Virus record (IMG/VR): IMGVR_UViG_3300042698_000029
Coordinates: 32,001 to 96,000 of that record
Strand: one strand, 5' to 3'
From: a virus
DNA length: 64,000 bases
Below, piece after piece: positions 2,985 to 6,290 of this stretch. Position 1 is the stretch's first letter. Every line of letters begins with the position of its first letter. The position numbers and the translations under genes are program-made. Below the pieces are notes generated by a model that did not search any database, was not told the DNA's origin, and saw nothing but the letters and a program-made list of their open reading frames with translations.

Positions 2985-3094
2985 GGGGTCCTCCAGGGAT
3001 GGGGCGGGCACGACCATTGTGCCGGTCGCGGACCCTCCGCGCAGCGGCGTGCGGGTGGCAGTATGGCGCCACGGAGGGGTTGTGAACTGGAGGA

Positions 3095-3319
3095 ATGATG
3101 ACGGTGCATGTGCGGGTGCTGGGTGGCCCGTTCTTCGACTTGATGTTCTGGCCCGGAGACACGGTGGGCGATCTGCGGCGGATGATGGAGGAGGCAACCG
3201 GTATGCCGATGGAGGCTCACCGGCTGTCGTTCCAGAGCAGGCAGCTCGATGACGACACGCGGCTGCTGGTGTCTTACGGCGTGACGGAGGCTTCGCTGGT
3301 GGTGGCCGTGCTGTATTGA
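3095..3319 (+). CDS. Ubiquitin-like protein (eukaryote-type beta-grasp), no C-terminal GG
   Basis: GGAGG RBS; hand alignment to ubiquitin gives about 22/73 identities (PGDTV, GMP, RLSF, QLDD, Y59 equivalent). Confidence 0.8.
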   Translation: MMTVHVRVLGGPFFDLMFWPGDTVGDLRRMMEEATGMPMEAHRLSFQSRQLDDDTRLLVSYGVTEASLVVAVLY

Positions 3320-3378
3320 GCGCGTGCCGCGCATGTCTGGTGTGCCCCGATTGACCGGGATGTGGTCTCTTGGGGTAC

Positions 3379-6023: not shown

Positions 6024-6290
6024 ATGGAAAACTCCGGGTTCTGGCAGCGCACGCTCGACTGTGCGCTTCTGCTGTTCATCCTCGGCGTCATCGGTCTGAA
6101 GGTCGCCGACATCGTCAAGGTCATCTGTGTCGACTGGGGGCAGATCTTCACGGTCGCCGGGATCCTGGCCTTCATCGCGGTGCTGATCTGCGCAGTGCGC
6201 AACGCCTTCGCGGACGACGAGGACGAGATGCCGACTCTCCGCGACCACTCCGCATCGTCTCCGAAGACCGGGAAGGGCGGCGGCAAGTAG
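6024..6290 (+). CDS. Two-TM membrane protein (holin-like)
   Basis: Two hydrophobic segments and a charged C-terminus. Confidence 0.55.
   Translation: MENSGFWQRTLDCALLLFILGVIGLKVADIVKVICVDWGQIFTVAGILAFIAVLICAVRNAFADDEDEMPTLRDHSASSPKTGKGGGK

Follow-up and report, generated by a model that had tools for sequence, protein, structure and literature searches.

Why should a virus of bacteria carry, directly before the gene for its large terminase (terL), a gene for a member of the ubiquitin family, which in its proper form is very rare outside eukaryotes? The question is raised by IMG/VR virus record IMGVR_UViG_3300042698_000029, a 153,126-bp sequence with terminal repeats that is rated complete (GC 65%) and belongs to a large, uncultured phage from soil. 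Bases 32001-96000 of this record make up the 64,000-nucleotide stretch that we refer to as the window, and all positions given below without a locus label are positions within it. A first-pass annotation, made from the letters of the window alone, had singled out an open reading frame at 3095-3319 (+) as a eukaryote-like ubiquitin homologue lying immediately upstream of terL. The frame is indeed open there for 74 codons, and the terL start codon (ATG 3379) lies 59 nt 3' of the gene. In literature searches for ubiquitin in phages, actinophages or Streptomyces phages we came across no report of a ubiquitin-family gene carried by a bacterial virus. The answer that we favour, and to which we give about an even chance of being right, is that this is an accessory, moron-like gene whose product acts as a non-covalent ubiquitin-fold binder.

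A ubiquitin-family protein without the conjugation tail

The product of the gene is a true ubiquitin-family protein and is not of the ThiS, MoaD or YukD type. Its match to Pfam PF00240 (E 7e-9; 35.8 bits against a cut-off of 25.4) places residues 4-73 on positions 1-69 of the 72-position profile, and in a six-frame search of the complete genome the same gene scored 34.6 bits and was the sole PF00240 gene. The first-pass annotation had proposed a comparison of hidden Markov models (HMMs) for ubiquitin, ThiS, MoaD and YukD as a check on its assignment; in a Pfam scan taken down to E <= 1 ubiquitin was the best match, the other rows were Ubiquitin_2, Ubiquitin_4 and a stray sub-threshold match to AMP-binding, and ThiS, MoaD and YukD were absent. 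Searches of the PDB with phmmer likewise returned single ubiquitin chains (E 1e-6 to 1e-5), aligned collinearly with one gap. An AlphaFold2 (AF2) model, built with 10 relatives in the alignment (predicted local distance difference test, pLDDT, 94.3; predicted template modelling score, pTM, 0.82), follows the order strand, strand, helix, strand, strand, short helix and strand, which is the beta-grasp topology of ubiquitin, and its top Foldseek matches are ubiquitin itself and NEDD8 (TM 0.87-0.91, root-mean-square deviation 1.1-1.6 Å, 30% identity); for ubiquitin itself the deviation is 1.3-1.6 Å at a TM of about 0.9. The homology that had been claimed is therefore borne out both by the PF00240 score and by the overlay of the fold on ubiquitin, and the roughly 22 identities in 73 positions that had been counted by hand were about right, as the computed identity to the canonical ubiquitin repeat (taken from a search hit) is 21/72, or 29%. 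An exhaustive phmmer search gave 2,081 hits, and the 150 listed are multi-repeat polyubiquitin-like proteins of 358-2,934 aa with 4-18 matching stretches; by features, the nearest Atlas cluster is UBL5 (0.93). PHROGs, NCBIfam and PADLOC (at E <= 0.01) gave no matches to the protein, the PADLOC library being dated 2023 and possibly holding no models for defence ubiquitin-like proteins.

Beyond the HMM family and the topology that it shares with ubiquitin and NEDD8, the phage protein keeps the conserved positions of the core as well as L8, G10, R42, F45, R/K48, Q49, L50, R54 and Y59 (ubiquitin, Ub, numbering, as used below for all Ub positions). Positions 8, 68 and 70 are hydrophobic throughout its family, being Leu, Val/Ile and mostly Val/Ile, respectively, with Tyr or Ala in some members at 70. 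It differs from ubiquitin and NEDD8 in having no LRLRGG, in its changed residue 44 and in belonging to a phage of bacteria that is without E1, E2 or deubiquitinase (DUB). At position 44, where ubiquitin has Ile, translation and alignment confirm the Ser that had been read before (Ser45 of the protein), and across the family this position is small and variable (Ser, Ala, Thr or Trp).

The product cannot be attached to other proteins by canonical conjugation, because the Gly-Gly and the flexible tail are absent and the phage is without E1, E2 or deubiquitinase. In the alignment the chain stops at about Ub position 72, with the loss of LRLRGG and an ending in VLY that had been correctly reported; in the AF2 model beta5 spans residues 68-73 of 74, which leaves no free tail. 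None of the eleven known members of the family ends in GG, their C-termini being LY, RY, GP, GS, CS or AP, and the description of the protein as non-conjugatable can thus be carried over from the window to the family as a whole. The reported lack of E1, E2 and JAB genes in the window likewise extends to the complete 153-kb genome, which gave no matches to ThiF E1 (PF00899), UQ_con (PF00179), Prok-E2_B (PF14461), JAB (PF01398), Prok-JAB (PF14464) or OTU (PF02338); the negatives for UQ_con, Prok-E2_B and OTU, three of the six, are weak because the control genomes were silent for these profiles too. The phage protein is in this respect unlike the ubiquitin-like proteins of the bacterial Bil and Bub systems, with which it shares the beta-grasp fold and a setting of phage-bacterium conflict: those proteins are encoded with E1, E2 and deubiquitinase, are conjugated via a C-terminal Gly and often contain several beta-grasp domains, and the phage protein has none of these features (bioRxiv 10.1101/2023.09.04.556158; PMC11601603).

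Sequence and fold are nearest to eukaryotic ubiquitin, and in a viral structure library the good matches all came from eukaryotic viruses, with one Caudovirales entry at rank 46 (17% identity). Such similarities could point to an effector that is released on lysis and mimics ubiquitin in soil amoebae, fungi or plants, and the first-pass annotation had raised an effector of this kind. We find this hardly credible. The protein has no signal peptide or delivery domain, its beta1 starting at residue 2, and eukaryotic machinery would be unlikely to recognise it because it has ~30% identity to ubiquitin, no Gly-Gly and an altered residue 44. The ubiquitins of eukaryotic viruses (baculovirus v-ubi, those of giant viruses and the pestivirus inserts) are also virus-borne members of the family and supply the best matches in the structure library, but these viruses infect cells with a ubiquitin system and most of their ubiquitins keep the Gly-Gly, whereas the host here is a bacterium. 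Moreover, BfUbb of Bacteroides fragilis, which is 63% identical to ubiquitin and is secreted with a signal sequence, is nevertheless directed at bacteria, being imported through SusCD and toxic to competitors (PMC5705921, PMC6194340, PMC11467351). BfUbb is the one prokaryotic homologue of ubiquitin proper known to have been characterised; it resembles the phage protein in being an unconjugated PF00240-type protein of the prokaryotic world that acts by binding its target, as the phage protein may also do, and differs from it in that the latter is 29-30% identical to ubiquitin, has no signal peptide or N-terminal extension and is phage-borne.

The frame offers two ATG codons as starts. The second, ATG 3098, is probably the one that is used, giving a product of 73 aa, because the GGAGG of the Shine-Dalgarno sequence is spaced 4 nt from it as compared to 1 nt from ATG 3095, and because an MTVHV-like N-terminus is common to all eleven relatives; GGAGG or GGAG is kept at this position in 5/6 aligned loci. 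The window's protein contains no Lys, as had been stated, and this had been taken for a 'non-pupylatable' design. That part of the earlier interpretation does not hold, as 9 of the 11 members contain Lys (0-4 per member). The frequency of Lys in the proteins of the genome (3.9%) gives a probability of ~0.05 for its absence from 74 aa, and 3/53 of the genome's proteins of similar size are Lys-free; the absence is within chance and is no family trait. The GC content at third codon positions (GC3) is 0.84 in the ubiquitin-like gene, somewhat below the 0.90-0.94 of its neighbours.

Distribution of the gene and signs of its insertion

The ubiquitin-like gene is followed by terL, an r1t-type holin gene and the genes for portal and prohead protease, and an HK97-type capsid gene is carried by a syntenic relative. 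Among cultured phages it is closest to Frankenweenie, Kela and Satis, which are Streptomyces phages of 185-200 kb; the nucleotide match to these is limited to a ~1.3-kb part of terL, at 73-74%. We infer that the host is Streptomyces-like and the lifestyle lytic; no integrase or serine recombinase was found in the phage, and the protein would therefore act during lytic growth.

All carriers of the gene belong to a single sub-clade of uncultured phages, in which terL bears an intein. Word-indexed searches in 5.8 billion proteins found relatives in ten clusters of 73-86 aa, to which a retrieved locus added an eleventh member; all match PF00240 and all come from metagenomic contigs. The family length is 72-74 aa, with 80 and 86 aa in two gene calls. 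Wherever the available DNA suffices, the gene is accompanied by two constant partners, a gene of 427-436 aa on the opposite strand (430 aa in the window) and a terL of 800-803 aa, while locus L002 shows the ubiquitin-like gene beside terL only. The usual order is the 430-aa gene (-), the ubiquitin-like gene (+) and terL (+); in L014 and L015 it is the ubiquitin-like gene (+), a 436-aa gene (-) and terL (+). In the carriers compared (L003, L006, L011-L013, L014/L015 and L024) the neighbour gene is 78-88% identical to that of the window. At the syntenic site of two further phages, L022 and L023, there is no ubiquitin-like gene, and the flanking open reading frames (ORFs) and the rest of each locus are without a PF00240 match; these phages have a terL 82.6% and 64.8% identical, and a 440-aa and a 436-aa homologue of the neighbour 71% and 46% identical, respectively.

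Searches farther afield gave no additional members. The complete genomes of Frankenweenie and Satis had no match to the family profile, a tblastn search with the ubiquitin-like protein against 50,697 deposited phage genomes found no relative, and neither did a scan of IMG/VR contigs with family patterns. A candidate from a genome-contig scan (L021) was discarded, the match being due to chance and lying antisense to an integrase-like gene. Matches to PF00240 above the cut-off occurred in 0/14 control prokaryote genomes and in 1/301 sampled genomes of the genus Streptomyces. The single match in Streptomyces (L027:1381-1725 (+), genome G112; 114 aa, 47 bits) is a SUMO-like ORF that ends in QQVGA and not in Gly-Gly, lies beside a transposase-like ORF and is unrelated to the phage family.

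Comparison of the junctions provides signs of how the gene may have entered the locus. In the phages without an insert at this site (L015, L022 and L023) the 430-aa gene is directly divergent from terL across 70-85 bp, and the junction consists of a single CATGTCCATTGTGCC, ~15-20 nt, GTGGTCTCTTGGGG with small variations, and the terL ATG. In the window two partial copies of the motif flank an insert of ~310 bp that holds the gene, its ribosome-binding site and an upstream element, GTGGCAGTATGGC. The alignment of the right junction (A6) has a mean column identity of 81%, which is above that of the ubiquitin-like coding sequence, and the block before terL is identical in kind in the insert-free phages. 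The core of GTGGCAGTATGGC is invariant in 6 loci. The element, with the consensus GTGG(C/G)A(G/A)TATGGC, also occurs upstream of the gene at the L014/L015 site, and at this second site in L015 it reads GTGGGAATATGGC and stands at the same distance from the start codon, just after a terminator-like hairpin of the preceding gene. GTGGCAGTATGGC is not repeated elsewhere in the window. The idea that the two conserved intergenic motifs belong to a class of phage promoters was dropped, as their recurrence across the window is not above chance.

The picture suggested by these comparisons of sequence is that one sub-clade of lytic phages, relatives of those of Streptomyces, would owe the gene to a single insertion, in an ancestor, of a small cassette (~310 bp) into the control region from which the 430-aa gene and terL diverge. 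In one lineage the cassette would later have shifted to the other side of the 430-aa gene, its one move within the locus. Morons, as described by Hendrix and colleagues, are independent cassettes of genes that have been inserted among the conserved genes of a phage. The cassette resembles a moron in being a small insert between genes that are adjacent in relatives, in having a ribosome-binding site of its own and a conserved element upstream, in its patchy presence and in its occurrence at a second site. It is unlike a classic moron in that no terminator was found and the promoter is only putative, and expression from a prophage, as in the classic case, would be inapplicable to a lytic-looking phage. 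The flanking duplication, taken together with the insert-free relatives, makes this locus a clean example of the entry of a gene into a phage genome.

Evolutionary rate and what the protein may bind

Rates of change were compared pairwise among the same five phages for each gene, with non-synonymous (dN) and synonymous (dS) divergence computed by the Nei-Gojobori method. Between the phages of a pair, the ubiquitin-like proteins share 42-62% of their amino acids, as compared to 75-87% for the 430-aa neighbour and 90-94% for terL. The ubiquitin-like gene has a dN of 0.30-0.47 as compared to 0.04-0.06 for terL, and its non-synonymous divergence amounts to 6-9 times that of terL and about 2.5-3.5 times that of the neighbour. 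The dN/dS ratio is 0.38-0.84 for the ubiquitin-like gene, 0.27-0.55 for the neighbour and 0.09-0.16 for terL, absolute values that are inflated because a GC3 near 0.9 constrains synonymous change, and whose ranking holds. Ubiquitin is almost invariant, whereas its phage family is very variable between close relatives. The conserved positions are those of the core, of the beta1-beta2 hairpin (H4, R6, L8, G10, P11, F12, F13 and D14), T22-V23-G24, R42, F45, R48-Q49-L50, R54 and V57-S-Y-G-V-T-E-x-S65, part of the surface (including YGVTE-S at 59-65) being conserved along with the core; the positions that vary lie on the exposed side of helix 1, in the 36-41 loop and at the C-terminus, and also include 16-21, 44 and 70.

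With a dN/dS ratio that reaches 0.84, and with so little identity even where the phages are close, the gene could be taken for a neutral passenger, a captured ubiquitin gene that is decaying without function. We think this very unlikely, as the reading frame is intact and of near-constant length in all eleven diverged members, neither the core nor several of the exposed residues vary among them, conservation extends to the ribosome-binding site and the upstream element, and the ratio is below 1 in every pair.

The location of the gene invites a different explanation, namely that its product is an accessory of assembly or packaging whose fold docks on the terminase, the 430-aa neighbour or a virion protein as a chaperone or adaptor. 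In both arrangements the gene adjoins the 430-aa gene and is never more than 1.4 kb from terL, and there is no terminator between it and terL; the ubiquitin-like domain of the lambda tail protein gpI offers a parallel. An assembly role nevertheless strikes us as unlikely, since phages of the L022 type, which have the same intein and the same neighbour gene and a terL 82.6% identical, are without the gene at the site, and since the excess of non-synonymous divergence over terL and the neighbour would be odd for a partner of conserved proteins. With 73 aa and no DNA-binding motif the protein is also unlike a small terminase, and this role was rejected because sister phages with the same terL lack the gene at this site.

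We therefore return to the accessory, moron-like gene. On this reading the gene is inferred to be accessory and not a core part of packaging or of the virion, and its product would be a stand-alone ubiquitin fold that remains unconjugated and binds a partner non-covalently; because the surface of the ubiquitin-like protein evolves fast, that partner would itself be fast-changing and, most simply, a protein of the host. Non-covalent action of this kind has precedents in eukaryotes, where Hub1/UBL5 is a stand-alone ubiquitin-like protein that acts non-covalently on spliceosomal partners, and where the integral ubiquitin-like domains of Rad23 and Dsk2 also work non-covalently. Like Hub1/UBL5, the phage protein is a single domain of ~73 aa without Gly-Gly, and it would be alike in mode of action as well; Tyr occupies Ub position 70 in three phage members and is the last residue of two others. 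It is unlike Hub1/UBL5 in that the kinship seen is that of the shared family and in that the spliceosomal partners of Hub1 are absent in bacteria.

Several points weigh against this reading. The dN/dS ratios cannot separate relaxed from diversifying selection. The absence of the gene from L022 and L023 covers the syntenic site only, and a copy could lie elsewhere in those genomes. A consensus scan found no sigma-70-type promoter here and no terminator after the gene; the putative promoter role of the upstream element is argued from its conservation, and the ubiquitin-like gene may simply stand first on the transcript that carries terL.

If the partner is a host protein, it could belong to a defence system. 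Bacteria use ubiquitin-like conjugation against phages, and this lineage of phages has acquired, keeps and rapidly reshapes a non-conjugatable ubiquitin. The protein could then be an anti-defence decoy, as the first-pass annotation had also suggested, whose tail-less fold blocks a host Bil/Bub-type set of E1, E2 and DUB, or the Cap2/Cap3 enzymes of the cyclic-oligonucleotide-based antiphage signalling system (CBASS), and in this way shields virion proteins of the same late operon. Such a decoy, which we rate as rather doubtful, would suit an accessory gene that is restricted to one clade and evolves fast, features that are common among counter-defence genes, and that heads the structural gene block. 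Possible targets exist in the likely host group, with Prok-E2_A genes in 17/301 sampled genomes of the genus Streptomyces. E1 enzymes and deubiquitinases hold the extended C-terminal tail of ubiquitin, and the tail that they grip is missing here; position 44 is small and variable, and nothing ties the protein to the Prok-E2_A genes of Streptomyces. The lack of a PADLOC match counts only weakly against a decoy, given the date of that library. For Bil, a phage tail fibre is reported as the protein to which the ubiquitin-like protein is conjugated (bioRxiv 10.1101/2023.09.04.556158).

The Prok-E2_A matches in Streptomyces (L029-L032 and 13 more places) lie in open frames mostly of about 590-1,030 aa; the length of many of them (about 600-860 aa) suggests E2-E1 fusions of the Cap2 or Bil type. 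Another possibility, which we consider unlikely, is that of a competitive 'dead' ubiquitin that occupies the ubiquitin-fold site of a host machine and disarms it during virion assembly, the candidate machines being a Cap2/Bil-type E2-E1 enzyme or the proteasome/Cdc48-like unfoldase apparatus of actinobacteria. Were this true, bacteriophages would have yielded their first anti-defence protein built on a ubiquitin fold, a direct counterpart of the way in which viruses interfere with ubiquitin-like immunity in eukaryotes. A 73-aa, easily expressed protein also provides a handle on what the ubiquitin fold binds in the actinobacterial cell.

The neighbouring gene and other features of the locus

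In Table 1, we have listed the features of the locus with their coordinates.

Table 1. Features at and around the ubiquitin-like gene, in window coordinates
Feature	Position	Strand	Remarks
Divergent neighbour gene, 430 aa	1692..2984	-	widespread family without assigned function; adjoins the ubiquitin-like gene in both arrangements
Left copy of duplicated junction motif, GACCATTGTGCC	3012..3023	+	partial copy
Conserved upstream element, GTGGCAGTATGGC	3055..3067	+	promoter-like (putative); accompanies the gene at both sites
Shine-Dalgarno GGAGG	3089..3093	+	5' of both ATG codons
Ubiquitin-family gene	3098..3319	+	73 aa; alternative ATG 3095 gives 74 aa; ends VLY in beta5, without Gly-Gly tail
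Right junction-motif copy CATGTCTGGTGTGCC (3332-3346), then near-invariant block GATGTGGTCTCTTGGG (3359-3374)	3332..3378	+	reaches terL start
Large terminase terL, 800 aa	3379..5781	+	PHROG 2 and other terL families on residues about 46-144 and 353-769
Intein in terL P-loop, 281 aa	3583-4425	+	matches DnaB mini-inteins in PDB, E 8e-13

The search with the 430-aa neighbour returned 246 relatives at E <= 0.001; leaving aside the phage clade and Streptomyces, those listed have 33-46% identity to it and belong to Pseudomonadota, Acidobacteria, Chloroflexi and other groups. Members of this family are ~420-470 aa long and have invariant N- and C-terminal Cys motifs, a disordered centre rich in Ser, Thr and Gly, and a C-terminal coiled coil; the AF2 model of the window's protein (pLDDT 76.8) shows this centre and coiled coil together with long beta-hairpins. 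No Pfam, PHROG, PADLOC or NCBIfam match was obtained for it, and a tblastn search against the 50,697 phage records gave no match either. Fold searches returned nothing at E <= 0.001; the best VIA-align score (Z 6.0, on small T-fold enzymes) is within the stated noise, and the weak Foldseek rows are rich in beta-pore-forming toxins, which makes a pore-former a lead only. Bacterial homologues occur at L017:8001-9308, L018:8001-9344 and L019:8001-9332, and in two bacterial genomes the homologue follows a 714-754-aa gene of no known function, and a ubiquitin-like gene is absent from the vicinity. When the ubiquitin-like protein was co-folded with the 430-aa neighbour, without controls, the ipSAE was 0.00, a value that speaks neither for nor against an interaction. 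As the 430-aa gene pairs with terL in phages that have no ubiquitin-like gene, the adjacency of the two genes may reflect merely the landing site of the cassette.

The 20 nt before the terL start (3359-3378, GATGTGGTCTCTTGGGGTAC) are near-invariant across phages whose coding sequences differ by 10-50%, and terL is without a clear Shine-Dalgarno sequence; this block may control translation or transcription, or may be a signal for packaging. The junctions of the terL intein read GTGK|ALDP and VPTHN|SMIAS, and the intein has Ala as its first residue and Thr-His-Asn at its end, as in class 3 inteins. Its insertion is shared by all relatives examined, even where terL is only 65% identical. The r1t-type holin-like gene (6024-6290 (+); PF16945, sub-threshold at 19.7 bits) lies directly 3' of terL, between the packaging and portal genes, a position that is kept in relatives. 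Defence-like genes are also found in related phages: a gene for an AbiEii-type toxin (PF08843) occurs a few kb from the terL locus in related phage contigs, the places noted for defence-like genes being L011:6578-7210 (-) and L022:13176-13323 (+), and L022 also bears a gene for a GmrSD_C-type nuclease.

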